A stretch of DNA of 64,000 nt, taken from a virus (taxonomy: Duplodnaviria; Caudoviricetes). This document shows, one piece after another, positions 4,116 through 39,942 of the stretch (the first letter of the stretch is position 1; every line of letters begins with the position of its first letter). The notes under the pieces are model-generated. The model made no database searches, had not been told where the DNA came from, and saw nothing but the letters and a program-made list of their open reading frames with translations. Made by a program: the position numbers and the translations under genes. The stretch covers positions 1,176-65,175 of the IMG/VR virus record IMGVR_UViG_3300027899_000014, one strand, 5' to 3'.

Positions 4116-4979
4116 TTAAAAACCTGATTTCACATCCAATTCCATTCCTTCAACTAAATCCTCAACTAAAACCCATTCACCATTTATCATAAACTTATGA
4201 CCTTGAGTAAATGATAATATAGTTCCATCTTCCATTTCAATATCTGTAATAAAGGCATCTTCGTATTTAAAAACATTTGTTACTGGTTGAAGACCTTTAG
4301 TAGTTTCTACTAACATTCCTGGAATAATATCTTTTAAGCTTATAGATCCTTTATCTGAGATAACTTCCATTTCTTCAGTTCCACACATATAGATATGATT
4401 CACTGCTACCATAGGGATATCATACTTAACTAGATATGGAGTAATCATTCTAAAGATAGACTTCATTTGGCGAGCACGAGTCATATCTTGAGTTGACTTA
4501 CCTTCAATAGCATCTTCCATTTCTTTCTTTGATGACATATTACCAAGAGAATCAATAACAAAGATAACCTTATCACCCCGTTTGATTTCTTGCAACTGAT
4601 GCATTATATCAAATTTGAACTCTTCCATATTCATGATAGGTGTATGTACTACACGTTCTTTATCAATACCCAGAGAATCAAAATAAGATTCAGGAGTACC
4701 AAACTCACAATCATAGAATACCAATACAGATTCTGGATACTTATCCATGTAAGACTTTGCAAGGATTAATGAGAATAATGATTTGAAATGTTTACTTGGT
4801 CCACAGAATAAGGTAAGACCTGGAGTTAATCCACCATCAATTCTACCTGATAATGCAATATTAAGAGCAGGAATTGGAGTTGTTACCATATCTTTTTTAG
4901 TAAAGAACTTTGAAGATGATAATATCGAAGAATCTTTAATCGTACTGTTCTTTTTAATTCGTTCTAATAATGCACTCAT
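4116..4979 (-). CDS. uvsX: UvsX (RecA-like) N-terminal half ending in an 89-aa split-intein N-fragment
   Basis: GPSKHFKS Walker A, FYDCEFG, VIDSLGN, VNHIYM|CGTEEMEV...FTQGHKF (TxxH block B)...GEWVLVEDL. Confidence 0.92.
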   Translation of the reverse strand: MSALLERIKKNSTIKDSSILSSSKFFTKKDMVTTPIPALNIALSGRIDGGLTPGLTLFCGPSKHFKSLFSLILAKSYMDKYPESVLVFYDCEFGTPESYFDSLGIDKERVVHTPIMNMEEFKFDIMHQLQEIKRGDKVIFVIDSLGNMSSKKEMEDAIEGKSTQDMTRARQMKSIFRMITPYLVKYDIPMVAVNHIYMCGTEEMEVISDKGSISLKDIIPGMLVETTKGLQPVTNVFKYEDAFITDIEMEDGTILSFTQGHKFMINGEWVLVEDLVEGMELDVKSGF

Positions 4980-5044
4980 TAATTACCTCATTTGTTAATT
5001 TATTCTACTATTATACCATACAATTTACAATTTGTAAACTATTA

Positions 5045-5602
5045 TTATGGATTATTTTTGGAATGAGGTACATCAAATACAAAAGTAATTCTTACACAAT
5101 CACCTATATTTTCTGTTCCATGTTCTAACTTATTATTGAACCAAAGTAATGTTCCAGGTTCTACTATGACAGACTCATCTCCAACTGAATATCGATAAGT
5201 TCCTTGGATTGCTAGATGGTATCTATCTCTTGTAAGATAATAATTTCCAATATCAATGTGTTTGCCTACACACCCTCCAATAGGCAAAGATAAAAATCCG
5301 CAACGACTAAACTTTTTGAAATTACGTTTTAAAAATCCAACTATCTCAGTATGTCTTTTATATGCTGGAGTTTCCACACAAATATCGGTATCACCAACAT
5401 ATTGATCTATAGTTTCAATAGAACCCATTACTAATTGTAGAACTCCGGCTTGAACCTCAGGAAACCCTCTGTCGAGCATAGACAATGCTCCTTCCATTGT
5501 CTTTTGTGCTCCCCAATCATTGGGGTATTTTTCTAATTGCTTTAATATCTTTGAGACATTAATTCCAGTTTTGATTATTCTAATATTATCCAAAAAATTC
5601 AT
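5045..5602 (-). CDS. Aspartyl/asparaginyl beta-hydroxylase-like 2OG-Fe(II) dioxygenase
   Basis: HID...RYHLAI...WFNNKLEHGTEN...RITFVFD, an HxD...H...R pattern. Confidence 0.8.
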   Translation of the reverse strand: MNFLDNIRIIKTGINVSKILKQLEKYPNDWGAQKTMEGALSMLDRGFPEVQAGVLQLVMGSIETIDQYVGDTDICVETPAYKRHTEIVGFLKRNFKKFSRCGFLSLPIGGCVGKHIDIGNYYLTRDRYHLAIQGTYRYSVGDESVIVEPGTLLWFNNKLEHGTENIGDCVRITFVFDVPHSKNNP

Positions 5603-8090
5603 CCAGGTTTGCTGAGTTATTTAATTTCCAACCAATTGGTTCAAGCATAATTTGAAGAGGGTTTATAAATACTTTTTCAAATTGTGTATCATAATCAATA
5701 TATTTTTCTAATCCAAATTCTTCCGGTATTTTATCTTTAATGGATATTACATTCTGATTAATAGGATTAGGAGTTCTTAAGAACACTACTTTTACTTTAT
5801 CACTATCAAGTATTTTTTCGTATGTCTTTGATAGTTTGTATTTGTCTATTAAATGATTGTACCAAAGAGCTCCACGTACGTGCATAGGAGTGCCTTTAGC
5901 AAATACATTAGTCTTATCACTAAACTTCTTAAGACCATTAATACCTGAAGGTCTGCCTATTTTGCCGGTTTCAAGAGATTCAAACTCAATTTTAAAGTCA
6001 TTCACATACTTATTGATTTGAGTTTCATCACCATCCAATATAATGTCCAATGAATCTTTTAGTTTTTTCCTACATATTTGAGGTGTAGAAGACTTAACCA
6101 ATTCTAGACCAGTTACCTTTAGTTTAGGTTCTGCGTATTGAACGCCTTCAGAATTATGAACACGAAGAAAGTATCTTTTCTTTGCTACAAATACACCTAC
6201 ATCGGCAAGTACTTCGCGTTTCATTTTCATCTTCTGTTCATATGCATTCATATAGTCTGCAAGTTTTATATATGAACGATCAATTAAAGGTTCTACTATT
6301 TTAGCACAGAATGTATCCATGAAAACTATCTTTTCACTGATAGATTTATTAGGACATACAGATTCCACAATTGCTTCTAAAGTTACATAATTAGAATCGG
6401 TATCTCCGGCAATAACATATTGGACATCTTCAGTTTTATTTGCTTTATTTAAGTACTCATCCAACATAATAGCATTCCATCTATTGGATAACTGACCTGA
6501 TAATGTGATACTTTCTGCCATTCTTAAGTCATAATATCTGAACCATGCATTACCTATTGCTCCATACACACTATTCAGTGCTTCTTTTACGGCTAATTGC
6601 ATAGCATTTGAAGAACTTTGAGCATTCTGATATTCTTTATTGTACTTATCAGACTCAAGTAATTGCTCATACTTAAGCATTTCATTTTTATAATTACTAC
6701 GGTCAGCATATACCTCTTCCATAATTTCAGGTAAGAACCCACGAACATCTCGACGATAGCACCAACCATTTGCGCTTAAAGATAAATTCTGTTCTTTAAT
6801 GTATGAATTATCAAATGATTTGGATAATAGTTCATCGACAGTACAAGGTATTTTAATATCGGTAAGAGTTTCGGGGCTAATATTATATTGCATAATCAAA
6901 TGTGGATATAGAGATGCCAAATCGAATGAGGCAATGTACTTATGTTTACCAACTACAGGTATCTGAACATAAGCACCTTCATACTTACCAGTTTTGATTG
7001 AATTCTTCTTTGGTGGTATAACAATATTCTTATTCTTCAATCTATTATAGATGATTGAGTCCCACATATTTACTGGACCATACACTTCATCAAGATTTAT
7101 TTTAGAATAATATGCAAGAGATACTGCAATTTGAATAAGCTTAAGTTTCTCATCTAACTTATCTACAAGTCTAACGTCATGTCTGTTATAGTCCACGAAC
7201 CGGGGCCAATCCAATTCATAAAAGTCTTTAAATGAATTATAAGGATTTTCAAGTTTCTTTTCACCTAGTACTGTATTGGCAACAGTATCAAGTTTCATAT
7301 CATCTACTTGAATTTTACCAAACTTAGCAAATAGTTCTTTATAATCGAGCATGGCAATGCCTTCGATATTATAACCGATCTTCTCATTACCGTTCTGATC
7401 TTTAAACAATCGTTCACGAACACGACCCCAAGGAGATAGTTTATTGATGATTTGATCATCTATAACTCTTGACATTCTACGAATTAGATATGGAAAGTCA
7501 TATCCATTGGTGTTCCAACCTGTTACAATATCAGGATAGTTTAGAGTCCAATGAGTCATAAACTCTCTAAATAAGTGAGCTTCACTTTGGCATTTAATAT
7601 ATGGACCATCCTCGTTTACCTTGTCATAAGGTCTTGTGCCAAAGGTTACAATATCACTAGAGTTTCTATTCTTTACTGATATAAGTGTAATCTCTTCTAC
7701 AGGATCTTTAATCACCTCATCAATACTTAGACCGTGTTCAGTAGTAGTCTCAATATCAATAGTGGTGATATTCATTACTGATTGGTCATATTGAATATCA
7801 CCTGGATAATATTCAGATATAAACTGTTTAGTGAAGTCTTGCATCCCGTATATTTTGAAGTTTTCTACTTCACCATAACTTTTGATAAACTCTTTAGTGT
7901 CATGGATATTACCAGGTTGGATTTCACCTACATATTCATTAGTAAGAGTCTTCCATTTAGTTGGAGTCTTGGATGAGACAAATAAGGTAGGTTTGAAGTC
8001 AACCTTGGTATGGATTCGTTTGCCATCTTCATAACCTCGAAGCAAGATGTTATTAGATACTTGTAGTACACTTGTATAGAATTTAGACAT
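5586..8090 (-). CDS. 43: Family B DNA polymerase (T4 gp43-like)
   Basis: DIET exo I, SFDLASLYP, KxxLNSVYG, GDTDS, KKRY motifs. Confidence 0.97.
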   Translation of the reverse strand: MSKFYTSVLQVSNNILLRGYEDGKRIHTKVDFKPTLFVSSKTPTKWKTLTNEYVGEIQPGNIHDTKEFIKSYGEVENFKIYGMQDFTKQFISEYYPGDIQYDQSVMNITTIDIETTTEHGLSIDEVIKDPVEEITLISVKNRNSSDIVTFGTRPYDKVNEDGPYIKCQSEAHLFREFMTHWTLNYPDIVTGWNTNGYDFPYLIRRMSRVIDDQIINKLSPWGRVRERLFKDQNGNEKIGYNIEGIAMLDYKELFAKFGKIQVDDMKLDTVANTVLGEKKLENPYNSFKDFYELDWPRFVDYNRHDVRLVDKLDEKLKLIQIAVSLAYYSKINLDEVYGPVNMWDSIIYNRLKNKNIVIPPKKNSIKTGKYEGAYVQIPVVGKHKYIASFDLASLYPHLIMQYNISPETLTDIKIPCTVDELLSKSFDNSYIKEQNLSLSANGWCYRRDVRGFLPEIMEEVYADRSNYKNEMLKYEQLLESDKYNKEYQNAQSSSNAMQLAVKEALNSVYGAIGNAWFRYYDLRMAESITLSGQLSNRWNAIMLDEYLNKANKTEDVQYVIAGDTDSNYVTLEAIVESVCPNKSISEKIVFMDTFCAKIVEPLIDRSYIKLADYMNAYEQKMKMKREVLADVGVFVAKKRYFLRVHNSEGVQYAEPKLKVTGLELVKSSTPQICRKKLKDSLDIILDGDETQINKYVNDFKIEFESLETGKIGRPSGINGLKKFSDKTNVFAKGTPMHVRGALWYNHLIDKYKLSKTYEKILDSDKVKVVFLRTPNPINQNVISIKDKIPEEFGLEKYIDYDTQFEKVFINPLQIMLEPIGWKLNNSANLDEFFG

Positions 8091-28477: not shown

Positions 28478-29260
28478 TTATAACAATTCAAAACTTATTA
28501 ATTTCCATCCTTTTATTGGTATAGAATTATTTTTGGTTTGTTTGCTCATAAAGTTATTTAATGAATGGTTTTGGAACCAATCTGTATAATTTATGTCTAA
28601 ATGAATTGGATTATTATTTTTAAACTGAACAACCAAATTTTTATACTTATTAGTAAACAATCTATTTTGCAATTTAGTTTCTTTCATTTTTTCCAAAGCT
28701 TCAGGATAATCATCTTTAAATGTTTTACCTTTAAGAGGCGATATTCTTCCATTCTGATATTCTTTTTTTCGTTGTGCACTATTAGCAGCATTCTGTTCTT
28801 CAGTTCTTATTTTACCTTTATTATTATAACCTAATGTATTCCCATTTTTAAATCCCTTTTTACTTTTATGTTCTTCTGATTGGGGTCTACCTTTCATTTT
28901 TTGTCTATGTTTTTCAATAGTTTCAGGGGATCTTTTATGGCCTCTTCCGCCTTTATCTATATTATAACCTTGACCTCCTTGAGTAGAAGTCAATGAATCA
29001 TATTGAATAATAAAATCAGTTTCTATTAATCTGCAATATTCATAATCATTAGATTGCAAAATAACACTACAAGAAAAATTGTGTTTGCCATATTTTTCAA
29101 TAGCAAAAGATATAGGAGATCTTTCTTGATATTTTGGTTTGGTAATTTTACAATGGTCATTAAATCTATGACCTAATTTATTTGATGTATAACCAATATA
29201 TTTCTTATTATTGATTAAATTTGTTATAAGATATATTGAATATATATTTGTGCTGGACAT
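28478..29260 (-). mobile_element. Free-standing GIY-YIG homing endonuclease with NUMOD3-like repeats, between genes 23 and 3
   Basis: YSIYLITNLINNKKYIGYT, AIEKYG, GYNIDKGG, SPETIEK/SEEHKSK repeats. Confidence 0.9.
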
Positions 29261-29434: not shown

Positions 29435-30838
29435 TTACATAAGATTTGTAACTTTACAAATTCTGTAGTAATAATTTTTACGGGCTGTCATTGAGTTGTC
29501 CGCATTTGAAGTAGCAGACATTGAAGCATCATCAATATCAACCATTGGATTAGCAACCATACCGTAACGAGTTTTGAAACCAATTTTAGGTTGGAAAGTT
29601 TGTGGATCAACCGCACGAACCATTTGCAATGGAACATAAGGGCAATAGAACAAACCAGCATCAAATGCAGAAGTACCTTTGTAACCTACAGTAAAGAATT
29701 GTAGACCAGCACCAGAAGGATTATTACCACCTGTGTAAGGATCAACATAAACTTTATATTTGCCGTTTAAGATACCAGCAAAAGTAGTAGATGCTTCATC
29801 AACATTCAAACCAGTAGAAAGAGCAGGAGCATAATCTAATACACCAGCCATTGCTAAAGCAGAAGCAACATCTGAAGAACAGATGATGAAGTTACCACGT
29901 CCACGACGTGTTTGTTGAGCGATAGCGTTAGCTTCTCTTTCGATTTGGAACAACAAACCTTTGAATTTTTCAACTGACCAACGACCATTAGAGTCAACGT
30001 CAAGATCAAAAGTACCAGCAGTTGCAGTACCAGTAGCAGCACCTTGTTTAGCAACAGTATAGATAGTACGAATAACTTCACGGTTGATTTCAGCAAGAAT
30101 TTCAGTAGAAAGAATTTTGCTTAATTCGCCTTCAGCGTCAAGACCATGAACTGATTTTAAGTCTTGTGCTAATTCGATAGAGTATTCAGCTTTCAATGCA
30201 CGAGTTTTAGCAACAACTGAAGTTTTCTCAATTGAGAAAGCCATTTCAGGAAATGCATTACCTGCAGTTGAACCTAAAATTTCAGCAGCTGATGTAGCTA
30301 TACCTAAACCAGTTTGATAAGAACCAGTTGATAAACCAGTAGCACCAGTAGGATCAGTACCAGTTGCGCCTGAAGTACCTGTGAAACTTGTATCAGCTTC
30401 ATTAAACAATGCTTCTGTTCCACTTGGACTAGTGTAACGAGATTTCATTGCAAAAATCAAACCAGTAGGTTGAGTCATTGGTTGAACACCGGCAATATCA
30501 TATGCAATCAACTGAGGCATAGCACGACGTACTAAGTTAATCAATACAGGATCAAAACCAGCTACACCACCAGTACCAGCAGCGCCAGCGTTGTATGTAC
30601 CAGTACCAGTAGTATTGATACCATAGTTACCAGCACCACCAATGTTAGTAGAAACTCCACCAGTACCGTTTTCGAAAAGCATGCTATTAGCTTGACTAGC
30701 AGCACTCATTTCACGTTGTTGGTTTTCTAAGATAACCGCTAAGTCACCTCGACGAGTAAAGTCTTTAATTGCAGGTGCGCCTTCAGCGTCAATTACAGGA
30801 GCCCATTTTTCTAAAAGGGCAGAACGATTTAATTCCAT
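29435..30838 (-). CDS. 23: Major capsid protein gp23
   Basis: LVRRAMP, GVQPMTQPTGLIFA, RALKAEYSIELAQDL, FYCPYVPL, FQPKIGFKTRYG. Confidence 0.98.
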   Translation of the reverse strand: MELNRSALLEKWAPVIDAEGAPAIKDFTRRGDLAVILENQQREMSAASQANSMLFENGTGGVSTNIGGAGNYGINTTGTGTYNAGAAGTGGVAGFDPVLINLVRRAMPQLIAYDIAGVQPMTQPTGLIFAMKSRYTSPSGTEALFNEADTSFTGTSGATGTDPTGATGLSTGSYQTGLGIATSAAEILGSTAGNAFPEMAFSIEKTSVVAKTRALKAEYSIELAQDLKSVHGLDAEGELSKILSTEILAEINREVIRTIYTVAKQGAATGTATAGTFDLDVDSNGRWSVEKFKGLLFQIEREANAIAQQTRRGRGNFIICSSDVASALAMAGVLDYAPALSTGLNVDEASTTFAGILNGKYKVYVDPYTGGNNPSGAGLQFFTVGYKGTSAFDAGLFYCPYVPLQMVRAVDPQTFQPKIGFKTRYGMVANPMVDIDDASMSATSNADNSMTARKNYYYRICKVTNLM

Positions 30839-30865: not shown

Positions 30866-32521
30866 TTATTGGTTATATTTTTGTAATACTTTAGCATACG
30901 CAGCAACAGTAGGATCAACATTAACATATTTGTTTTCATTGATTTCATCTACCGGAGAATCAGTAACAAAAGATTCTACTAAAGCGCTGTGTTTACCAGT
31001 GAAATAGTTTTCACGAATTGTTTGTACTTTTACTTTGAATAAATCTTCTGAATCATAAGATAATTCTTCTACTAATGCAGTAAATTTTTCAACTTCTGTA
31101 TCAGTCAAACCTTCGCTAACCATATTTACGATTTCTTTACGAACTGATTCAGAAAGTGATTTTTTCAAATCAATATTTCTTTCAACTTGTTCGTTTAACT
31201 TAGACTCTAATACGTCAATCTTAGTTTCCATCTCACCGATAACGTCGTACTTTTCTTCAGGAACATCAATATAATGCTCTTCAAAAAGTCCTTTCATACC
31301 AGTAATAAAAGATTCCATGATGTCAGACTTAAGTCCATTTTCAAGGGCTATTTCATTCTGTTCTATCCACTGCTCAACAACATAGTCGAGGTAACCATCA
31401 ATTTTTTCAACCAGACCCTCAGTAATTGAATCTACTTGCTCAGCAAGTTGTTCTTCAAATTCTTCTTCTAAACGTGAAACTTCCTCTTTAACACGTACAA
31501 CTACAGCAGCTTCAAAAATAGTAGCAGCTTTTACTTTAAATTCTTCTGTTAAATCTTCACCAAAAAGTAAAGCATCAACGTCTTCTTGGACATCGAAATC
31601 TTCAATAGATTCTTTTACATTTTTGCGAACTTTAGCAATATCAGCAACAGATCTACTACTCAAAGTATTTTTTGCAATTTTTTCAGGTGAATTAATTGCC
31701 TTTGGGATGAAATGATTATGTACACCTTGTGTATTTAAATCATCTGCAGTTTGTCTTTTTATAACTGAACCAATTCCTTTATGTCGTTTTGCAACAATAC
31801 CCGCATGTTTTTCTTGACTTGCAGTAGTTCTTGCAGTTTGCGTTTTATTAATTGAATTATTATATTGTTTACTAGCTTTCTTAACATAAGAACCTAAAGT
31901 CTTTTTACTTAACTCATCTAATTGCTCAAAGTCTTCAGACATCATGAAATCTTCTAGTTCTTCAACTGAATAATCTTCAAGAGTAAGTTCTTCTTTAGTC
32001 ATTTTGTCGACTGCTTTAGTAATACCTTTATCACGTTTAAGAGCAATCCTACCAGAATCGGACCATTTTGCTCCGGCGCCCAGCTTTTCACCATTAACAA
32101 TACCGCTTGTAGCTGCTTTCTTGACATAAGAACCTAAAGTCTTTTTAGATAATTCAAACAATGTTTGTTCTTCTTCATCTAAAGAATCATATTCTTCTTT
32201 GGTTAGTTTATTGACTGCTTTAGATATACCAGCCTGACGAGCAAATGCTTTATTGCTAGATTTATTTGCTTTGTCTCCTTCACCTCTTGCTTGTTCGCGT
32301 GATGCACTTCTTGTATTTTTGCCATAATCAGCATTCGCTTTCTTAATATAAGAACCTAGAGTTGCTTTTGATAATTCAAACAATGCTTGTTCTTCTTCAT
32401 CTAAAGAATCATATTCTTCTTCAGTGATGAATTCTTCATCTAATTCTTCTTCGTTTTCTAAAACTAATCCTGCTAATTTGGATTCTTCCATAATCTCAGC
32501 AATTTTGCTATCAATAGACAT
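30866..32521 (-). CDS. 22: Prohead core scaffold gp22, extended by three repeated basic modules
   Basis: C-terminal half EFKVKAATIFEAAV...YLDYVVEQW...FEEHYIDVP is gp22-like; N-terminal ELSKxTLGSY modules. Confidence 0.9.
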   Translation of the reverse strand: MSIDSKIAEIMEESKLAGLVLENEEELDEEFITEEEYDSLDEEEQALFELSKATLGSYIKKANADYGKNTRSASREQARGEGDKANKSSNKAFARQAGISKAVNKLTKEEYDSLDEEEQTLFELSKKTLGSYVKKAATSGIVNGEKLGAGAKWSDSGRIALKRDKGITKAVDKMTKEELTLEDYSVEELEDFMMSEDFEQLDELSKKTLGSYVKKASKQYNNSINKTQTARTTASQEKHAGIVAKRHKGIGSVIKRQTADDLNTQGVHNHFIPKAINSPEKIAKNTLSSRSVADIAKVRKNVKESIEDFDVQEDVDALLFGEDLTEEFKVKAATIFEAAVVVRVKEEVSRLEEEFEEQLAEQVDSITEGLVEKIDGYLDYVVEQWIEQNEIALENGLKSDIMESFITGMKGLFEEHYIDVPEEKYDVIGEMETKIDVLESKLNEQVERNIDLKKSLSESVRKEIVNMVSEGLTDTEVEKFTALVEELSYDSEDLFKVKVQTIRENYFTGKHSALVESFVTDSPVDEINENKYVNVDPTVAAYAKVLQKYNQ

Positions 32522-32550
32522 TTATATCTCCTAATTTTGATATATCTTAT

Positions 32551-32558
32551 TATTTATA
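32551..32558 (-). promoter_or_regulatory. T4-type late promoter
   Basis: TATAAATA upstream of gene 22. Confidence 0.7.
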
Positions 32559-32570
32559 AAAATTAAACTT

Positions 32571-33221
32571 TTACTTAATGCTTCGTAAAAAATGTTGGAA
32601 GGCACGTATTTTTTGCTCTTCTAAATTCATCGATGTTGCTTTTGTTATTGTTCTTCTAGCTTCATCAACATGTTTCTCAAACTTTCCATCAACATAAACC
32701 CAAGATGCACCTTCCATGATTCCCTGAACCCAAGCATCTGGGGCAGATGGATCACTTACTAAATCGCCTGCAGTACTTAACATAAAGTCATTTTGTACTA
32801 CATTAACACCTTCATTGTTCATTTTTAATGAACCTAAAGCACGACTTGATGTACCAATTCTTCCGCCACCTTTAAGAATACCTTCGGCAATTCTGCCCAT
32901 AGGAGTATCAAGAATCTTCGCCTTTCCAATCCAATTGTTACCTTCTTTTCTTAAGTTAGTAATTAGATGTGAAATTCTATCAAGATTAATTGAAGGCGAT
33001 TCAGGATGTCCTAATTCGCCAAAAGCAGAATTCTTTTCTACTTTTTCTTTAATATATCTTTGAACTTCCTTATCCATAATAGATTCAGGATACATTCTGC
33101 CATTACGATTCTTGATATTTGATTGAAGAAATACTCCTTCTACGTAAAGTTGTTTACCTTTACCTAGTTTTTCTTCTACAACCATATTTAATGTTTCGTT
33201 AACTTCCCTAATTAGTTTCAT
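32571..33221 (-). CDS. 21: Prohead protease gp21
   Basis: NRNGRMYP, GELGHP, SSRALGS, DPSAPDA. Confidence 0.96.
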   Translation of the reverse strand: MKLIREVNETLNMVVEEKLGKGKQLYVEGVFLQSNIKNRNGRMYPESIMDKEVQRYIKEKVEKNSAFGELGHPESPSINLDRISHLITNLRKEGNNWIGKAKILDTPMGRIAEGILKGGGRIGTSSRALGSLKMNNEGVNVVQNDFMLSTAGDLVSDPSAPDAWVQGIMEGASWVYVDGKFEKHVDEARRTITKATSMNLEEQKIRAFQHFLRSIK

Positions 33222-33222
33222 A

Positions 33223-33897
33223 TTAGCTTCCGTATACTAATTCGTTATCTAAAGCACCAAATTGAGTAGTCTCTATTTTACCATAATAACCTGAATTCTT
33301 TCTAACTTTAATCCAAATTTCCCCTTGGACTGCCGCAGCAAGTTTATCTACAATAGTAACACTGATAGGATATGTTGCATTAGTATTATCAGGTGGGAAA
33401 TATGTACCCATCATATCAATAAGATTACCATTATCTGCAAGAGGAGTAACAATGCGAACACTATTTCTATCTACTTTATATATAGCACCAGGTTCTCCAG
33501 CCCATTGAACTGCGGTAATAGAAACAGAAGGTGAACCAATTATTACTTGTGTTGCATAAGCAATTTTATAAGTAGTACCTGCTATTGCTGCTGCCCCATT
33601 TGCTGCTAGAGTAGCATGTGTAGTATCTGTTACTGAAGTGATAAGTCCAACATAAACTCCTGCAGTAGTATATACTTTTGCATTCACATGAACATTAGTA
33701 TTAAAACTAGTTCCTACACCAACTATTGAAGTAGCACCTGTACCTATTGTTACAGTTCCTGCTCCATCAATAGTATTTGCATAAGGTAACAAATCTGTTG
33801 TTAAATTTATTATAGATGCAGCAGTATCTGATCCAGCAATTTTAATAACTGCCTCAGTCTCTGATGCTTTAATAATGGTTTTTGTTAATGCTGCCAT
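33223..33897 (-). CDS. Putative virion protein with an inserted beta-rich domain
   Basis: Head-gene operon position; internal SIVGVGTSF...ITSVTDTTHATL module. Confidence 0.6.
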   Translation of the reverse strand: MAALTKTIIKASETEAVIKIAGSDTAASIINLTTDLLPYANTIDGAGTVTIGTGATSIVGVGTSFNTNVHVNAKVYTTAGVYVGLITSVTDTTHATLAANGAAAIAGTTYKIAYATQVIIGSPSVSITAVQWAGEPGAIYKVDRNSVRIVTPLADNGNLIDMMGTYFPPDNTNATYPISVTIVDKLAAAVQGEIWIKVRKNSGYYGKIETTQFGALDNELVYGS

Positions 33898-33899
33898 CT

Positions 33900-34457
33900 T
33901 TATTCCTTAATGATTACATCGAGTATTTTTAAGAAGTTATCCGAACTTTCTTTCATGAACTCGACAACCTCTAATTTATTTTCTAGTAAGTTATTTATAT
34001 GTTGTTGAGTTTGGTAATTTATTGCAATAACAGATTCATCATTAAGAATGTAGTGTATTTTACCATTAATAATAGAATCAAATTCATTCATCTCACGAAT
34101 ATGATAAACAGCTGGATCAATTGAAAAGGATTTGTCGGAAGCTATTTTAATATATTGTTCGACTATTTTATTTGTGACTTTTATATTATGTTCTTCTTTA
34201 ATTATGTCTGCAATTTTTACTATGTTTTCAGAAAAGAATTCTTCATATAAGTTATTGATAATATCTTTTGCTTGCTCTGAATATTTAATATGATTTTTTG
34301 CTTCCGACAAATTTTTAAACTGAGTTACTTCATTATTAATTAATATAATATTATCGGTAGTTCTCTGAATAGTATTACCAAAGTAATAGAGATCCTCAAG
34401 AATCTCCATACCTGATAACGTTTCTTTTAACTTTTTAGAAAACTGTGAATAATACAT
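33900..34457 (-). CDS. Putative prohead core protein (gp68 position)
   Basis: Synteny between the gp67-like gene and gene 21; MKES.DNF C-terminus. Confidence 0.55.
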   Translation of the reverse strand: MYYSQFSKKLKETLSGMEILEDLYYFGNTIQRTTDNIILINNEVTQFKNLSEAKNHIKYSEQAKDIINNLYEEFFSENIVKIADIIKEEHNIKVTNKIVEQYIKIASDKSFSIDPAVYHIREMNEFDSIINGKIHYILNDESVIAINYQTQQHINNLLENKLEVVEFMKESSDNFLKILDVIIKE

Positions 34458-35803
34458 TATAACCCTGAATGTCTATCACTAGATTTCGAGGTATGTGCAG
34501 CTGATCCTGCACCAAGACCTGTCTTTTTATACGATCGTTGTGTACCAGCTCTTCTTTTATCAAAAAGTTTTTGATCTTCTGGACTCATTTTTTCTCTTGC
34601 AGAACTAATAATATCCTTAGTTGGGATCGGCCATTCTGGATTTGTTCCTACTTTTTTAAGTATGTTATTAGATTGTTGTGTTGATTTACCTCTATAAGAC
34701 ATATGAGTTCTATTAGATAATTCATCTAACTCTTCAACTTCTTCTTTAGTTAATTTGCCAACTGCTTTAGCAATACCTGCAGTACGTTTCTTTTCTAATT
34801 TCTTAGAATAATTATAATTATCTACATGTAAAGCTTCTAAGCCACTATTTCCTTTGGCTAAAGCATCTGATGCACCACGAGCAGATTGTTTAACACCAAC
34901 TGCAGCTTTTTTGCCTTGCTCAGCCGCTTTATTAATATATGAACCTAAAGTTTTCTTAGATAATTCATCTAACTCTTCAACTTCTTCTTTAGTTAATTTA
35001 CGGGCTGCTGCTTCAATACCTTTTCTTCGGTTATTAGCTTTAACAAAAGCTGCCCATTGGGCGTCTTTATTGGGTGAAGTGTACATAGTTCTTACCTGAG
35101 ACGCTCTATCATCAGAGGCTTTCTTAACATAAGAACCAAGAGTCTTTTTAGACAATTCATCAAGTTGTTCAAACTCTTCAGACATCATAAAGTCTTCTAA
35201 TTCATCTATTGAATAATCTTCAAGAGTAAGTTCTTCTTTTGTTAATTTGTCAACTGCTTTAGCAATACCGACTTTGCGTTTTTTGTTCATACTTGCAGCA
35301 TCTTGATAATCTTTACTTCTACTATGATCATTAACAGTTATACCTTTAACAAATCCTGCAAGACCAACATCAGAAGTTGCTTTCTTGACATAAGAACCTA
35401 AAGTCTTTTTAGATAATTCATCTAGTTGCTCAAATTCTTCAGACATCATATAGTATTCAATTTCTTCAACTGAATAATCTTCAAGAGTGAATTCTTCAAC
35501 TTCTTCTTTAGTTAATTTTTTCTTTGCTTTTGCTTTTTCTTGATCAATAAAACTTTGAGTAGTTCCGCCTTTAGCATGGTGTTTTATTAATTTGTCTTTA
35601 AATTTTGGATGCTTAGGATCCCAAGTTTCATATGCATCACTTGAATCATAACTTTCTTCAACTGAACCAAACATACCTTGAGCAACAGATACTCTCATAT
35701 CATCTAAACGGCCAGAAATTTTACTTGCCATAACAGCATTAAAATTATCTTCAATAGCAATTGAATCACCTTCAGCAATTGCGTTAATTAAATCTTTAAT
35801 CAT
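34457..35803 (-). CDS. gp67-like prohead core protein, greatly extended by repeated basic modules
   Basis: N-terminal DLINAIAEGD...F..VMASKI..RLD.MR..VAQ.MF is gp67-like and follows the portal; then 4-5 modules. Confidence 0.75.
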   Translation of the reverse strand: MIKDLINAIAEGDSIAIEDNFNAVMASKISGRLDDMRVSVAQGMFGSVEESYDSSDAYETWDPKHPKFKDKLIKHHAKGGTTQSFIDQEKAKAKKKLTKEEVEEFTLEDYSVEEIEYYMMSEEFEQLDELSKKTLGSYVKKATSDVGLAGFVKGITVNDHSRSKDYQDAASMNKKRKVGIAKAVDKLTKEELTLEDYSIDELEDFMMSEEFEQLDELSKKTLGSYVKKASDDRASQVRTMYTSPNKDAQWAAFVKANNRRKGIEAAARKLTKEEVEELDELSKKTLGSYINKAAEQGKKAAVGVKQSARGASDALAKGNSGLEALHVDNYNYSKKLEKKRTAGIAKAVGKLTKEEVEELDELSNRTHMSYRGKSTQQSNNILKKVGTNPEWPIPTKDIISSAREKMSPEDQKLFDKRRAGTQRSYKKTGLGAGSAAHTSKSSDRHSGL

Positions 35804-35805
35804 TG

Positions 35806-37311
35806 TTAGTTTCCTTGTTGTGTAGATGTTGGAGATCCAAATCCTTCAGGTACTGGAGGAGGATTCTCTTTATTTTGTTTTGCGATTTCTTTTATATCTT
35901 CATCTGATTGCATTAGTACATTTTTTTGAATCCATTCAATACTATAATATTTACCTACATACAAATCAATTTGCTGAAGGGTCGCAATTCGTTGATTAAG
36001 AACTTCACTTTCTTTTAATTCTGAAAAATAATTATCTTTTTGGAAATCAAATTGAATACTTTGTTTCATATCAAACCATTCGTCATCTCGAATGATACCT
36101 TTTGAAACTAATTGTATTCTTAATGCATCTACAAGTAAATTAGAAAATTTCTTACGTAATCTAGTAACAAATTTATTAAACTTAACTTCTTCTCGTGTTA
36201 TCTCAGTAGAACGACCTATGCTAAAACCTTGAGAAGGTTGTAATCTTCCTAAAGGAACATTTAAAGCTTGATATAATTTACTTTGGAAGTATTGTACATC
36301 TTCTATTTGACCAAGAGTTTGACCTCCAGGCAAAGTAGTAATTTCAGTACCTTTGCCACCTTCTCTTCGAGGCATCCAGAAGTCTTCCATCATAGACAAA
36401 TGTTTACGATCATCTCTTACTTCGCCAGTAGTAGCATCATAAACAATTTTATTACGAAACTTGTTCATAATATCATTTACATATTGTTCTGCTTTTAACT
36501 TAGGTAAATTACCAACATCAATATAGAATATACGTCTTTCTGGGGCTCTAGAAATACGATAGATTACTACCGCATCTTCAATCATTTTTAATTGATTGGT
36601 TGGTTTAACTGCTTTATGGAGATGACCTAAAGTCATTCCTGAATTAGGATCAATTAAACCACTTGGGCAATAGATAACTGAATCAAGAGATAATTTAACA
36701 CCTTGCGATGTTTGCTCACTAATTCCTTTATCATTATATATGTAAAATTCATCAATAGATTTTACAACATCAATACCTTTTTCATTACGTTGTTTCTTTA
36801 CGTTTTTGATTTTTCTTATTTTTCTTGGATCAATTTTACGTAATTCTGTAATACCTTTTTTGATATTAGCAGGATCAATCAATACTTGATAGTATACTCT
36901 ACCATCTATGTACCATTGACGGAAAATGTCTGGACCGAATTCTTCAAAGTCAAATAGTTTTAGTACTTCTTCAAATTCATCGGTGATTTTTTTCTTAATA
37001 CCATCTGAAACTTTTAAATTATCCAGATTAAGTTCAATAGATTTATCATCTTCAGTTATAATTGATTCATTAACAATATCTGTTATTGCAGAATCACAAT
37101 CAGAATACTGGGCAACTTCTCGGTATCGACGAATAAGATCATTTTCATTCTTGACAATAGAATCCATATCAAGAACAAGACCATAATAATTTGCAGCACC
37201 TGATGCTGTTGTTATTACAGTACTGCCATCTTCCGAACTTGGTGGAACTACACTAAGTGGATTTTCCTTGACAGGTTTTTTCTTACCTAACTCGATACCG
37301 AAAATTTGCAT
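35806..37311 (-). CDS. 20: Portal protein gp20
   Basis: WYIDGR, YRISRAPERRIFYIDVGNLP, EDFWMPRREGGKGTEITTLPGG. Confidence 0.98.
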   Translation of the reverse strand: MQIFGIELGKKKPVKENPLSVVPPSSEDGSTVITTASGAANYYGLVLDMDSIVKNENDLIRRYREVAQYSDCDSAITDIVNESIITEDDKSIELNLDNLKVSDGIKKKITDEFEEVLKLFDFEEFGPDIFRQWYIDGRVYYQVLIDPANIKKGITELRKIDPRKIRKIKNVKKQRNEKGIDVVKSIDEFYIYNDKGISEQTSQGVKLSLDSVIYCPSGLIDPNSGMTLGHLHKAVKPTNQLKMIEDAVVIYRISRAPERRIFYIDVGNLPKLKAEQYVNDIMNKFRNKIVYDATTGEVRDDRKHLSMMEDFWMPRREGGKGTEITTLPGGQTLGQIEDVQYFQSKLYQALNVPLGRLQPSQGFSIGRSTEITREEVKFNKFVTRLRKKFSNLLVDALRIQLVSKGIIRDDEWFDMKQSIQFDFQKDNYFSELKESEVLNQRIATLQQIDLYVGKYYSIEWIQKNVLMQSDEDIKEIAKQNKENPPPVPEGFGSPTSTQQGN

Positions 37312-37341: not shown

Positions 37342-37944
37342 TTAGAAACTAAATGGAATTGTTCCTACTGGAGTATCAATTGATATGTTAGTACCAAAAG
37401 AAGAACCATCAGTATCTGTACCAGTATTAGATGTAAAGTAGTTATAAGTAAATTCTACATCAAAAGTTTCAAGTGTGTTTATTACGTCAAAATCTAAAGC
37501 AATTGGAGAAATAGTTGTAGGATATGCATCAGCAAATTTATATACTTTTAAAGTAGCACCATTACGATCTAATTGATGAACTTCTAAATCTACTTGATAA
37601 TCAGAAGGATTTGTTTTACCTTCAGTAGCAGCATATCGTTGAATCCCAGCTTGCCAAGATTCAAATGCATTACGTAAACCAAAGGTTGTATCATTAATAA
37701 TTGTTATATTCCACGGTTGGAAACTACGTTCACCTGCAATATTAACAACTCTGCCTCTATATGGAACTTCTACATTTGTTATAGTAGAACCAGGTAATTG
37801 AGCAGCTTTACATAAAAACTGAGCTCTTGATCCTTCAAATGCACCGGCAGATACATAAGAAGGGAAATTTAAGTACGCTCTAAATTGATTGGCACGAGCA
37901 CCGCCACCAATCAATTGAGATTTAAAATCTGATATATTTGCCAT
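37342..37944 (-). CDS. 19: Tail tube protein gp19
   Basis: GGARANQF, CKAAQLP, AGERSFQPW..T. Confidence 0.93.
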   Translation of the reverse strand: MANISDFKSQLIGGGARANQFRAYLNFPSYVSAGAFEGSRAQFLCKAAQLPGSTITNVEVPYRGRVVNIAGERSFQPWNITIINDTTFGLRNAFESWQAGIQRYAATEGKTNPSDYQVDLEVHQLDRNGATLKVYKFADAYPTTISPIALDFDVINTLETFDVEFTYNYFTSNTGTDTDGSSFGTNISIDTPVGTIPFSF

Positions 37945-38022: not shown

Positions 38023-39942
38023 TTAACCACCAATTTCAGAGAAACTGATACCACTTCTTACTGCTATAAAGTTCAAAGTAATATAGTTAATTGAACGGGC
38101 AGGTTTAACATAAATGTCGCCTACAAATTCATTACGATCAATTACCTCTCCAGTATTATTAGTATCGTCACAAATTACTCTAAAGTCTAGAATACCTCGA
38201 CGACCCTTAACATCTCGTAAGAAAGGTTCTACAATATTTTTAAATTGAGCTCTTGTAAAAGTATCATTAAATTCAAATAATTGATATTTAGATGCAGTAG
38301 AAATTGCTTTCTCAAGAACAATAAACAATCTACGAACATTGATACGATCAAATGCAGAAGGCTTAGCCAATAATGTTTTATCACCAAATAATATAGTACC
38401 TTGTCCAGGGAATGTAACTACTGGATTAACACCATTTTTATAGATAGTATCTCTATCTGTTTTAGATAAACTTGCGGCAAGTTTAACAATATTTTTCACT
38501 TGACCACGATTATGCCCAGCAGGAGACCACCAAGCATCATTAGTATAATCAGTACGTGCAGTCATACCAGCAATATCACCGTTTAATGGTACCCATCGAT
38601 ATCTGTCATTATATCTATCGTATTGATACTTATAACCAGAATCTAGAACACCATAAGAAGACGATGTTAATCCATCTCTATAAGCATTAATTTTAGTAGT
38701 AACTGCTGAACCTGAACCTATAATTGCATCACCTGTAGATATATCTTGTGCAGATACAAATACAACACAATCTTTACGAATTTCTGCAATACTTTGAATT
38801 ACATAGTTAGCAGTAAGAAAATTTGCTTTACCGACAGGTATTAAACTAATATCATATTGACTATCATCTAAGTATAATTCCCAAGATGTCATTGCATATG
38901 ATCCAGCTGCATCAGAAAAATCATCAACCGCACCTGAAAAGGAATCATTCATAGCTCCTTTTAAAGAAGCATAAGCAGTACCTGAAACAGCAGCGGTACC
39001 CCATGCTCCTCCAGTATTAGTGTTTGCGGTATGTTTCATCCACCAAATATATTGTGATCTTGTATTAATTACTTCTTTATAATAATTAAGTGTACCATCA
39101 TATTTTTTAGCATCTGATAATTTAGAAACATAAGCAAATTTTTCTAAAATTGAACCTTTTGTTCCAGTGAACGCTCCATCTTCATCAATGATAATGATAT
39201 GAAGTTCATCCCCAGTAACATTAGTGTTAGAAGCATAATCTGAAGTTCCGGGCGCAGAATCAAATTGAGTATAATATGCCCAATCAGCTTTTAATGCAGT
39301 TCCTGCAGGAACAGAAATTAAAGAACCAGGAGACTCTAAAGTTAATGAAGTAGCAGATTCAATAGATTTAACAGTACCAATAACTACGCCTAAATCAGTT
39401 TTAAGAATAGCACCTACATGTAGTTGAGTAGTAAAAAGTGTACTAACCCCTACCACAGTTGTTCCACCAATAGGAACAATACTAGAAGAGGTAACACTAG
39501 TCAACACTAAATTTTTAAATGTATTAGAGTCTGCCATTGATACTTTCAATGAATTACCTAAAATACCGGCATATTTTGCTGCCCAAGAACAGTTATATGT
39601 TGAAGTAGTTAAAGTACCATAGTGACTTTCATTTTTAATTTTAGTAGCAGTACCACCCGTACTAACTGCATTAACTGCAGAATTAGAATCAATTCTAGAT
39701 ACATATAAACTACTTGTATAAGACAAAAAGTTTGCTGCAGTAAAAAATGATTCAAAAGTACTATCATTTGGCATACCAAATTGTTTTACTAATTCAACTT
39801 CTGATGATAATTTGATAGGGTATTCTATTGGACCCCACTGGAACTTACCAGCAAATGCCCCAGTTGATGATGAAACTGCTGGTACAATATTAGTAAAATC
39901 TTTTTCTACTACTGTAACTCCAGGACTTAACGCGTATGCCAT
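38023..39942 (-). CDS. 18: Tail sheath protein gp18
   Basis: SPGVTVVE, FQWGP, WWSPAG, FDRINVRRLF, KPARSINYI. Confidence 0.97.
   Translation of the reverse strand: MAYALSPGVTVVEKDFTNIVPAVSSSTGAFAGKFQWGPIEYPIKLSSEVELVKQFGMPNDSTFESFFTAANFLSYTSSLYVSRIDSNSAVNAVSTGGTATKIKNESHYGTLTTSTYNCSWAAKYAGILGNSLKVSMADSNTFKNLVLTSVTSSSIVPIGGTTVVGVSTLFTTQLHVGAILKTDLGVVIGTVKSIESATSLTLESPGSLISVPAGTALKADWAYYTQFDSAPGTSDYASNTNVTGDELHIIIIDEDGAFTGTKGSILEKFAYVSKLSDAKKYDGTLNYYKEVINTRSQYIWWMKHTANTNTGGAWGTAAVSGTAYASLKGAMNDSFSGAVDDFSDAAGSYAMTSWELYLDDSQYDISLIPVGKANFLTANYVIQSIAEIRKDCVVFVSAQDISTGDAIIGSGSAVTTKINAYRDGLTSSSYGVLDSGYKYQYDRYNDRYRWVPLNGDIAGMTARTDYTNDAWWSPAGHNRGQVKNIVKLAASLSKTDRDTIYKNGVNPVVTFPGQGTILFGDKTLLAKPSAFDRINVRRLFIVLEKAISTASKYQLFEFNDTFTRAQFKNIVEPFLRDVKGRRGILDFRVICDDTNNTGEVIDRNEFVGDIYVKPARSINYITLNFIAVRSGISFSEIGG

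Follow-up and report, generated by a model that had tools for sequence, protein, structure and literature searches.

The 64-kb stretch of DNA analysed here (the window) comes from a marine T4-like phage whose head-scaffold proteins bear basic cassettes, predicted to form two helices, in addition to their scaffold parts. T4 gp22 and gp67 are only 269 and 80 aa long, whereas their counterparts in the window have 551 and 448 aa; that the T4 proteins are much shorter had already been pointed out in an earlier reading made from the letters alone (the sequence-only reading). It had described arrays of modules with constant flanks and variable centres in both proteins and proposed that the prohead protease releases them as cargo. 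Our analysis confirmed the observation itself and supported the interpretation in part.

The gene names proposed earlier hold, both by profile matches and by gene order. The core of gp22 scored 230 bits (E 4.2e-68) with PF25623 T4_CASP, whose cut-off is 27, the protein matched phrog_237 (E 7e-77), and T4 gp22 showed 30% identity to it across the core. [quoted passage not shown] Residues 3-69 of the gp67-like protein matched phrog_1064 'prohead' (E 1.4e-6), while BLASTP against T4 gp67 returned nothing at E<=10; the gene comes immediately after portal gene 20 and before genes 68 and 21, as T4 gene 67 does. The two proteins resemble T4 gp22 and gp67 in the order 20-67-68-21-22-23, in the T4_CASP core and, as far as the profile match goes, in the phrog_1064 N-terminus, and also as gp21 substrates with many L/I-x-E sites, which for the window is a prediction. 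Unlike them, they contain basic cassettes.

The features of the locus are listed in Table 1. In the ORF translations, gp22 holds three modules and the gp67-like protein three more, as had been claimed, together with divergent extras: at aa 362 a left flank in degenerate form (LSNRTHMSYRGKS) with no right flank, and at about aa 95-102 a right-flank remnant, KKKLTKEE, with no left one. A six-frame regex search of the whole window found 7 left and 6 right flanks, all of them within these two genes. Every module in the window directly follows L-D-E or L-F-E, and no internal [LI]xE was found in any of them. The modules have a pI of 9.9-10.5 and the spacers one of 4.1, and the gp67-like precursor contains 77 K+R vs 76 D+E. 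At the DNA level, the six places at which the left flank had been seen to be similar match exactly the starts of an 85-nt direct-repeat family detected by repeat search (31875, 32115, 32337, 34926, 35118 and 35379). The acidic spacer common to both genes was recovered as well, as part of a 152-nt family comprising spacer and left flank, in which gp22 positions 31875-32026 are 86% identical to 35118-35269 and 75% identical to 35379-35530 of the gp67-like gene.

Table 1. Features of the scaffold locus, with positions in the window
Feature	Position	Strand	Remarks
gp22 head scaffolding protein, 551 aa	30866..32521	-	conserved N-terminus, 3-module insert, T4_CASP core aa 311-543
gp22 insert, gene nt 107-939	31583..32415	-	missing from 293-aa gp22 of near-identical relative L007
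gp22 module 1, aa 50-110, pI 10.1	32192..32374	-	preceded by L-F-E
gp22 module 2, aa 124-178, pI 10.0	31988..32152	-	preceded by L-F-E
gp22 acidic spacer, aa 179-203, LTLEDYSVEELEDFMMSEDFEQLDE, pI 4.1	31913..31987	-	V-E-E and L-D-E candidate cut sites
gp22 module 3, aa 204-261, pI 10.5	31739..31912	-	right flank divergent
gp21 prohead protease (Peptidase_S77, PF03420)	32571..33221	-	presumed processing enzyme
185-aa protein, gene 68 position	33900..34457	-	no family
gp67-like prohead core protein, 448 aa	34457..35803	-	gp67-like N-terminus, 3 modules, basic C-terminal tail
gp67-like acidic spacer 1, aa 105-129	35417..35491	-	
gp67-like module 1, aa 130-191	35231..35416	-	AF2-predicted hairpin
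gp67-like acidic spacer 2, aa 192-216	35156..35230	-	I-D-E and L-D-E sites
gp67-like module 2, aa 217-274, pI 10.2	34982..35155	-	
gp67-like module 3, aa 281-355, 75 aa, pI 9.9	34739..34963	-	
gp67-like degenerate fourth left flank and basic C-terminal tail, aa 362-448, net +10	34460..34720	-	preceded by L-D-E

To place the module among known families, we searched several databases. A six-module profile matched 2673 cluster representatives (50% identity) at E<=1e-3, which puts the pattern far above chance; the module is a widespread family without a name. When 102 modules were scanned against Pfam, no family came up consistently (the best, Med26, matched 6/102), a PDB profile search with the module gave a best E of 0.53, a Foldseek comparison of the module model with PDB and BFVD yielded 0 hits at E<=0.001, and the best ESM Atlas score, 0.77, was counted as no significant match. 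The module regions of both window proteins matched phrog_5709 (E 3e-14 and 2e-19). This PHROGs family of unknown function covers whole stand-alone proteins and not a single cassette; Cr30 and S-SKS1, which like P-TIM68 are module-bearing phages, each have a 682-aa protein with modules that is close in size to the profile of this family (676 positions). Stand-alone module proteins have 2-8 matched stretches each. Among 96 module ORFs from 77 loci and the window, 45 either form a fusion with gp22 or gp67 or map to the gp20-gp21 block.

Structure prediction of a single module, which the sequence-only reading had proposed as a check, gave a two-helix hairpin for gp67-like module 1 (AlphaFold2, pLDDT 86.8), its helices spanning residues 8-35 and 40-64. 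In this model the LDE site lies in the non-helical N-terminal segment and the centre is helical with high confidence; in a second model (pLDDT 74, pTM 0.45) the P1 Glu is the start of helix 1. From the first model we infer that the conserved flanks pair as the stem of the hairpin and that the variable centre is its tip. The view of the flanks as handles for recombination or for the protease is therefore incomplete, since on this model reading they would form the stem as well.

The motif of gp21 is given as L/I-X-E in the part of the literature drawn on here (PMC9026906), and the specificity of window gp21 was assumed from T4. In the 150 best representatives, a regex that placed no constraint on the six upstream residues counted 435 left flanks; P1 was Glu in 435/435 and P3 was L, I or V in 432/435. 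Of the 464 full modules defined by HMM, 440 have Glu at P1, and at P3 L stands in 257, I in 150 and V in 31. The variable centres of these modules (17,082 aa) contained one [LI]xE, against 39.3±5.9 (minimum 22) in 500 shuffles, and the control motifs showed no depletion (Ex[LI] 38 vs 39.2, [LI]xQ 37 vs 39.8, [LI]E 52 vs 40). [FMV]xE (9 vs 46.7) and [LI]xxE (14 vs 38.2) were likewise depleted, so the constraint is possibly wider than the T4 rule or partly structural. Glu makes up 3.9% of the centre residues and Asp 8.9%. The opposite trend was seen in the gp22 core of the same phages, with 281 sites vs 128±9 in shuffles, in gp21 (173 vs 64.5) and in homologues of the 185-aa protein at the gene 68 position (89 vs 38), where enrichment is as expected for a degradable core protein. 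In the comparison at the same loci, the portal had 191 sites vs 206 shuffled and the modules 2 vs 39. T4 gp22 has 16 sites vs 5.8 expected. The T4 internal proteins (IPs) have 0 internal sites, but this precedent is weak alone because just 0.7-1.1 are expected per protein.

In-silico digestion left 463/464 modules uncut, and 423/464 begin at a cut. The fragments were bimodal, with 978 of at least 40 aa (620 in shuffles) and 370 of at most 12 aa (105 in shuffles), and the sole fragments of window gp22 longer than 31 aa were the three module pieces. The predicted products are 64-123 aa long and not about 55-75 aa as first proposed, because acidic C-terminal tails are retained; under the strict [LI]xE rule, the predicted product gp22 aa 124-203 has a net charge of -4. 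PF03420 was present in 4/5 records bearing stand-alone arrays, the exception being a 51%-complete fragment. The motif counts support the claim of a cut motif at the module border: the motif precedes every module, is near-absent inside and is enriched in the degradable core. The window cassettes qualify as candidate S77 substrates, with L/I-x-E at their borders and an S77 gene in the same phage. The (L/I/V)-x-E before the module, with its invariant Glu and Leu/Ile, could also belong to the fold.

Module number and content vary among relatives; the invariance that the sequence-only reading had named as grounds for its refutation was not seen. Among close relatives, gp22 has 0 to 3 modules; bare forms are 283-302 aa for gp22 and 53 aa for gp67, and the largest gp67-like protein has 539 aa. 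In L007, the neighbouring genes are near-identical to those of the window, gp22 (293 aa) is without a module and the centres of the gp67-like protein differ, while the degenerate fourth flank and tail are kept. Shuffling between loci, also proposed earlier, is supported by a 549-nt block common to window gp22 and the gp67-like gene of another locus (L053), where nt 366-911 of the gp22 gene align at 81.6% identity over ~550 nt with the 3' end of the L053 gene; gp22 module 3 and its tail, to about aa 310, are homologous to the C-terminus of that gp67-like protein. The centre family of gp22 module 2 also occurs in gp67-like proteins of L008, L053, L059 and L070 and in an L025 protein encoded between gp20 and gp21, and that of gp67-like module 1 recurs in three gp22 proteins (L010, L011 and L012), in the L008 gp67-like protein and in a stand-alone protein of L009. 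One centre family was found in gp22 at three loci, in gp67-like proteins at two and in a stand-alone protein at one.

The 464 modules fell into 306 centre families, with centres of 18-74 aa. The centres are diverse, as had been claimed, but judged by their sequences they are not random: members of a family that come from different genes and contigs remain 82-95% identical and evolve under purifying selection, with dN/dS values mostly of 0.04-0.5 (27-34 codons per pair). The commonest centre residues are the hydrophilic A, K, S, D, R, G and N, and the positive charge lies mostly in the flanks. The flanks showed a modest excess of identical codons (142/214 vs 109 expected and 83/102 vs 56.6) in pairs that are not independent.

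The explanation we favour, at a probability of roughly 0.6, is that gp21 releases protease-proof basic peptides which the head keeps in the manner of T4 internal proteins, the scaffolds being their polyprotein carriers. Cleavage, retention, ejection and cassette function are what we infer here, from the observed anatomy, family breadth, motif statistics, predicted fold, presence/absence variation and cassette sharing. Each of the two proteins carries an array of basic cassettes of ~55-75 aa, by prediction two-helix hairpins with the conserved flanks as stem and the variable centre as tip, and the acidic spacers would offset the charge of the precursor. Once the prohead has assembled, gp21 (Peptidase S77) would cut after the Glu of the (L/I/V)-x-E before every cassette, and probably also at the second V/I/L-x-E site of long spacers. 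The site-rich scaffold core domain would be reduced to short peptides, while the cassettes would survive as ~7-14 kDa peptides because they lack internal sites. They would then remain with the DNA in the mature head, as counter-ions or as proteins ejected into the host, and recombination would gain, lose and swap cassettes among gp22, gp67-like and stand-alone internal-protein-like genes.

The closest known parallel is in the T-even phages. According to the portions of the literature used here, T4 IPs are small and basic and have no sequence relation to one another beyond a common targeting leader, the capsid targeting sequence (CTS); gp21 cuts them, and they are packed at ~360-370 copies each and injected (PMC9958956, PMC12373910, PMC3012670); T-even IPs reside in the scaffold core, are trimmed after L/I-x-E and stay with the DNA at ~1000 copies, and their set differs between related phages (PMC9026906, PMC3012670, PMC12373910). 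The cassettes are likewise small, basic and without an internal gp21 site, and 10/250 module proteins, stand-alone ones with a CTS-like start, begin MK[ST][YF]x[ED][FY], resembling T4 ipI-III (MKTYQEF.../MKTFKEF...). They differ in that three to four of them are embedded in gp22 and gp67-like proteins and are not separate CTS-tagged products, in that the ~10-aa N-terminal CTS ending in L/I-x-E is missing from the window cassettes, and in that all share, at both ends, one conserved stem of the predicted hairpin. Compared by BLASTP with T4 ipI, ipII and ipIII, the window proteins gave chance-level rows only (E>=0.079). In giant phages (SPN3US, phiKZ-like), a prohead protease related to T4 gp21 cuts after Glu to mature many internal head proteins, and ejection proteins make up a large mass within the DNA, as described in the excerpts relied on (PMC5694885, PMC7411985). 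By that description these are separate large proteins with propeptides and not arrays of one family of cassettes in a scaffold. A constant flank and a variable core, with a site-specific protease that frees several products, are also found in cyanobactin-type precursors and neuropeptide polyproteins. The flank/core logic is alike; chemistry, enzymes and biology are not, and the cassette flanks would stay in the product as the hairpin stem.

It is also conceivable, but unlikely, that the hairpins and spacers are merely extra core elements for charge balance, packing or contact with the capsid interior, and that gp21 excises them and they are expelled as other gp22 fragments are, with nothing retained or delivered. 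The modules are indeed located in bona fide scaffold and core proteins, the precursor is charge-balanced, and T4 core fragments have been reported to leave the prohead in the parts of the sources drawn on (PMC9958956, PMC9026906). However, an expelled segment should be as site-rich as the core, and the modules are 20-fold depleted. The 0-3 modules of gp22 in relatives with neighbouring head genes that, by eye, look near-identical imply that modules are dispensable for the same shell, the same cassettes occur in stand-alone proteins distant from head genes, and so many centre families under purifying selection would be unexpected for filler.

Two further scenarios are clearly less probable still. 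In one, no processing takes place at the borders: 'xLDE-LSK' would be a structural cap, and the arrays would act, for example, as intact multi-hairpin binders of nucleic acid or protein in the cell. Conservation of the flanks as a fold element, the P1 Glu at the start of helix 1 in one AF2 model and the position of stand-alone arrays among replication and nucleotide-metabolism genes are in its favour, but it leaves unexplained the avoidance of hydrophobic-x-Glu in the centres with the reverse motif unaffected, the preference for Asp over Glu, the recurrent fusion to the protease substrates gp22 and gp67, and S77 in 4/5 records with stand-alone arrays. In the other, which we find equally hard to credit, the centres are unconstrained, fast-diverging loops and not a cargo library, and the basic stem alone matters, for instance as a non-specific counter-ion of DNA. 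That the flanks hold most of the positive charge and that the centres are hydrophilic and of widely different length agrees with this, whereas discrete centre families with dN/dS mostly well below 1, near-identical phages that differ by replacement and not by gradual divergence, and the confidently helical centre of gp67-like module 1 argue against it.

Under the favoured reading, release of basic peptides that are kept in the head, the scaffold probably also delivers small proteins packed with the DNA. More tentatively, and in our estimate with no great likelihood, the cassettes may form a combinatorial library of injected hairpin binders, shuffled by recombination, in which each tip family acts against a different host factor. 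The basic stem would then serve core loading, release by the protease and co-packing with DNA, and the hundreds of tip families would meet targets such as a defence nuclease. Each of T4 Ip1-3 blocks one GmrSD variant. If this is true, the scaffold would be the delivery chassis of a phage 'effector polyprotein', supplied at thousands of copies per virion as the DNA enters.

The source contig is 65,175 bp long with approximately 31% G+C, and the window covers most of it. ORF calls together with Pfam and PHROGs profiles placed a T4-type head gene block on the minus strand of the window, the coordinates of which are collected in the table. By gene order relative to T4, the 448-aa protein occupies the position of gene 67; its first 69 residues matched phrog_1064 ("prohead") with an E-value of 1.4e-6, and BLASTP gave no match between this protein and T4 gp67 itself. 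The nearest cultured relatives by DNA were marine cyanophages and phages of Pelagibacter and Methylophilales, with 64-69% identity in the gp21-gp22 core only. Because the contig is only 39% complete, further arrays are possible in this phage. The 185-aa protein had no family match; the T4 gp21-type cut motif, [LI]xE, is 2.3-fold enriched in its homologues, and this enrichment would be in keeping with a degradable core protein comparable to T4 gp68. The Ala/Thr/Gly-rich 224-aa protein, whose gene lies between the 185-aa gene and gp21, had no Pfam or PHROG family and is poor in [LI]xE (3 vs 8.2 in shuffles). The segment that it shares with gp18 of the same phage (reciprocal phmmer, E≤1e-4) could represent a common surface or decoration domain.

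Coordinates of head genes in the window and of features in related viral loci (L numbers)
Sequence	Feature	Position	Strand	Match or place
Window	Tail sheath gp18	38023-39942	-	
Window	Tail tube gp19	37342-37944	-	
Window	Portal gp20	35806-37311	-	PF07230
Window	448-aa gp67-like protein	34457-35803	-	
Window	185-aa protein	33900-34457	-	Gene 68 position
Window	224-aa protein	33223-33897	-	
Window	Prohead protease gp21	32571-33221	-	PF03420 Peptidase_S77
Window	Scaffold gp22	30866-32521	-	PF25623 T4_CASP at aa 311-543
Window	Major capsid protein gp23	29435-30838	-	PF07068
Window	GIY-YIG endonuclease gene	28478-29260	-	
L007	282-aa ORF	3049-3897	+	Between gp21 and gp22
L011	539-aa gp67-like protein	2234-3850		
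L009	502-aa array protein	5341-6846		
L009	Ferritin/Dps-like gene	4722-5156		Upstream of array
L031	Ferritin/Dps-like gene	4783-5217		Upstream of array
L057	Ferritin/Dps-like gene	3405-3842		Upstream of array
L064	Ferritin/Dps-like gene	4412-4861		Upstream of array
L037	Ferritin/Dps-like gene	4117-4551		Upstream of array
L075	Ferritin/Dps-like gene	4425-4859		Upstream of array

The sequence-only reading had described modules with constant flanks and variable centres in two scaffold proteins, and our analysis recovered three in gp22 (aa 50-110, 124-178 and 204-261) and three in the gp67-like protein (aa 130-191, 217-274 and 281-355), the latter followed by a degenerate left flank at aa 362. When all six frames of the 64-kb window were scanned, 7 left and 6 right flanks were found, all within these two genes. 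The left-flank DNA repeats start at 31875, 32115, 32337, 34926, 35118 and 35379, as listed by that reading, and the spacer it considered common to both genes was found as a 152-nt block of spacer plus flank with 86% and 75% identity. The proposed alternation of acidic spacers and basic modules was likewise confirmed (spacer pI 4.1, module pI 9.9-10.5), and the gp67-like protein is charge-balanced overall (K+R 77, D+E 76). The expected L-D-E or L-F-E precedes every module of the window. The long spacers contain a second conserved V/I/L-x-E site (DYS-V/I/L-x-E), and a cut there would free an acidic 15-mer.

A profile built from the six window modules, run against 1.84 billion cluster representatives, matched 2673 proteins at E≤1e-3, of which 694 passed E≤1e-10; the best 150 of the 2673 had lengths of 206-1379 aa and 2-8 matched stretches per protein. 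These proteins come almost entirely from uncultured phages. Among isolate phages, tblastn matches to the module were limited to Cr30, S-SKS1, P-TIM68 and BUCT-ZZ01, with a further match in one viral single-cell fragment, and none of the module-bearing phages was found to have a published virion proteome. Pfam searches with gp22, the gp67-like protein, 67 of the best 150 representatives and 102 modules revealed no consistent family for the module. DUF7443 and HWE_HK were rejected, with weak rows among the 67 representatives and no single stretch passing alone, as was N4_RNAP_helical, sub-threshold in the scan of the two window proteins (20.5 bits vs a cut-off of 27). No solved structure in the PDB matched the module by sequence, its sole PHROGs family was phrog_5709, of unknown function, and our literature search found no description of it, the one "KTLGSY" match being an unrelated plant paper.

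T4 gp21 is described as cleaving after Glu in L/I-X-E, and exchanging this Glu for Asp as preventing processing of the T4 capsid targeting sequence (PMC9026906). The specificity of the window gp21 was assumed from the T4 enzyme, with which it shares 40% identity. Left flanks were counted among the best 150 representatives with a regular expression that left the upstream residues free: the residue before the presumed cut (P1) was Glu in 435/435 flanks, and P3 was L, I or V in 432/435. When full modules were instead defined as HMM domain matches that begin at profile position 3 or earlier and reach position 58 or beyond, 440 of the 464 modules in the same 150 proteins had Glu at P1. The centres of these 464 modules are 18-74 aa long (median 34), with a centre composition of 3.9% Glu and 8.9% Asp. 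Within whole modules, [LI]xE occurred 11 times vs 150.5±12 in shuffles, and within the variable centres once vs 39.3±5.9 (minimum 22 in 500 shuffles). Control motifs in the centres were undepleted (Ex[LI] 38 vs 39.2, [LI]xQ 37 vs 39.8, [LI]E 52 vs 40), and [LI]xD was slightly low (76 vs 92.5). Because [FMV]xE (9 vs 46.7) and [LI]xxE (14 vs 38.2) were depleted too, avoidance extends somewhat beyond the T4 rule.

For the degradable proteins encoded in the same loci the bias was opposite, with [LI]xE enriched in the gp22 core (281 vs 128±9), gp21 (173 vs 64.5) and the 185-aa protein (89 vs 38); it was neutral in the portal (191 vs 206), and the modules of these loci contained 2 vs 39. T4 gp22 is likewise enriched (16 vs 5.8). 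The T4 internal proteins (IPs) possess one site at the end of the capsid targeting sequence (CTS) and zero in the mature part; because only 0.7-1.1 sites are expected per IP, this avoidance fits in direction, is not significant alone, and was rejected as a strong precedent. An in-silico digest of the best 150 proteins left 463/464 modules intact, with 423/464 starting at a cut and a bimodal distribution of fragment sizes. Applied to the window, the strict rule would yield gp22 products of aa 50-116, 124-203 and 204-326, gp67-like products of aa 130-201, 217-280, 281-361 and 362-448, and pieces of ≤31 aa from the gp22 core. The seven gp22 and gp67-like products would measure 64-123 aa, rather than the approximately 55-75 aa first suggested.

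For structure prediction, 102 of 169 modules from the window and 77 viral loci were retained after dropping those >85% identical, and the alignment of these 102 sequences was given to AlphaFold2. The model is a two-helix hairpin (residues 8-35 and 40-64; mean pLDDT 86.8, pTM 0.71) with a non-helical EQLDELS lead-in, and by our reading of it each constant flank would supply one half of the stem, with the variable centre at the tip. Foldseek searches of the PDB and BFVD returned only generic alpha-hairpins or uncharacterised homologues, and the ESM Atlas gave no lead (best score 0.77). A model of spacer plus module had a pTM of 0.45, too low to judge packing of acidic helices on the hairpin.

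Of 444 candidate stretches from a profile-guided scan of viral contigs, 368 proved to be relatives. From the 78 loci retained, L030 was left out as lying on the same contig as L007. Module number was not invariant in the retained loci: gp22 carries 0-3 modules in 283-624 aa, and the gp67-like proteins measure between 53 aa (the bare form) and 539 aa. In L007, whose 185-aa and 224-aa proteins, gp21 and gp23 are near-identical by eye to those of the window, gp22 is 293 aa long with zero modules, and the gp67-like protein carries three modules whose centres are different. Nucleotides 1-106 and 940-1656 of the window gp22 gene show 89-93% identity to L007 gp22, nt 107-939 are missing from it, and nt 366-911 resemble the L053 gp67-like gene at its 3' end (81.6% over 549 nt). 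By context, the 96 module ORFs comprised 7 gp22 fusions, 9 gp67-like fusions, 17 between gp20 and gp21, 9 adjoining gp20, 3 adjoining gp21 and 51 in loci without a detected head gene. Because module number changes while the capsid genes remain near-identical, capsid size was rejected as the main role of the modules.

The 169 full modules fell into 75 centre families (≥50% identity), including 42 singletons. The exchange of centres between loci anticipated from the sequence was borne out by the family TSDVGLAGFVKG..., which occurs in gp22 of three loci (L010, L011 and L012), in the gp67-like proteins of the window and L008, and in the stand-alone 502-aa protein of L009. The family of the second gp22 module of the window also occurs in the gp67-like proteins of L008, L053, L059 and L070 and in an L025 protein between gp20 and gp21. 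In the best 150 representatives, the 464 modules represent 306 centre families, and only 15/551 within-protein module pairs share a family, on which basis tandem duplication of one unit was rejected. In three loci the centres are nucleotide-identical and the flanks differ with dS of 0.25-0.67. Synonymous codon identity between window flanks (142/214 vs 109 and 83/102 vs 56.6) showed a modest excess from non-independent pairs. A diversity-generating retroelement was rejected by reasoning only: the centres vary in length and are unalignable between families, in contrast to fixed-position substitutions.

The GIY-YIG gene lies just after window gp23, where T4 has segD. L007 instead possesses the 282-aa ORF, which lies between gp21 and gp22, has no Pfam match and adjoins the gp22 site of module gain or loss; homing-type breaks could drive cassette exchange. 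In the 539-aa gp67-like protein of L011, a basic insert of approximately 190 aa that is not a module lies after the gp67 N-terminus and ahead of the first acidic spacer, and the gp67-like slot thus takes other cargo.

Large, charged array proteins also occur outside the head cluster, in Cr30 (682 aa), S-SKS1 (682 aa) and P-TIM68 (1006 aa), with L/I-x-E ahead of every module. PF03420 was found in 4/5 tested records with stand-alone arrays, including a complete 218-kb contig, and the sole record without it is a 51%-complete fragment. An N-terminus of the form MK[ST][YF]x[ED][FY], present in 10/250 module proteins, resembles those of T4 ipII and ipIII (MKTYQEFIAE...) and ipI (MKTFKEF...) in NC_000866.4. 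A neighbourhood scan of 61/96 neighbouring ORFs of 9 stand-alone loci, picked by size and proximity, revealed that in 6/9 loci the gene immediately upstream of the array is ferritin/Dps-like (145-150 aa). The conserved order is a large cytidylyltransferase-like or DUF6321 protein, the ferritin/Dps-like gene, the array and DUF7207 downstream; in Cr30 one small gene separates the cytidylyltransferase gene from the array downstream of it, and in P-TIM68 the array follows it directly. Stand-alone arrays also contain non-hairpin blocks, such as "...VKDF.KSDAPQFKG.S..." common to the L009 array protein and P-TIM68 P0003, and VE(E)L(D/E)E linkers separate these blocks too. Among the best 150 representatives there are 532 site-free non-module fragments of ≥40 aa, 68% of them net positive. 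Judged from these sequences, cargo of several kinds may be present in the polyproteins.

We think that the scaffold proteins double as polyprotein carriers, with cleavage, retention and injection all inferred. The acidic spacers would neutralise the basic hairpins within the precursor, gp21 would cleave at the conserved sites, and the core would be shredded while the site-free hairpins survive and remain with the DNA. Copy numbers stated for T4 are approximately 580 for gp22, 340 for gp67 and 360-370 for each IP (PMC9958956); if those of the window phage were T4-like, it would pack approximately 3100 basic peptides (3x580 + 4x340). The peptides might act as counter-ions or packing aids for DNA, or, by analogy, as ejected effectors like T4 Ip1-3, each described as blocking one GmrSD variant (PMC12373910). 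The stem, being basic and conserved, points to a generic role; the tips, which are diverse, conserved and exchangeable, point to specific roles.

A role of the modules in assembly only seems unlikely, fitting poorly with the depletion of cut sites, the presence/absence variation and the stand-alone copies. Still less probable is that the LDE-LSK signature is purely structural, which would leave the specific avoidance of hydrophobic-x-Glu in the centres unexplained. We give equally little credence to the idea that the centres are unconstrained loops, which is at odds with centre families that are conserved and evolve under purifying selection (dN/dS within families mostly 0.04-0.5, from short alignments, 27-34 codons in length).

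The T4 internal proteins, packaged along with the phage DNA and injected to counter the defences of the host, are the classic example of such cargo, and to our knowledge internal proteins have so far been known as separate CTS-tagged gene products of T-even coliphages. The T-even internal-protein/CTS system is the closest known one; its defining N-terminal CTS is absent from the scaffold-embedded cassettes, which also have no homology to IPI-III, and we therefore regard the cassettes as working like this system and not as a member of it. They belong to a much larger, unnamed family of at least 2673 sequence clusters, and what would be new is cargo written into scaffold proteins as predicted cleavable cassettes, swapped between genes and phages. 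The 682-aa array of Cr30 makes the idea directly testable in Caulobacter. If true, it would widen the concept of internal proteins to include marine T4-like phages as well as the pond-water Caulobacter phage Cr30, explain the wide length range of gp22 and gp67 homologues, provide a sequence rule for virion-internal cargo (a site ahead of the product and none within), and offer a natural design for loading many small-protein copies into capsids.
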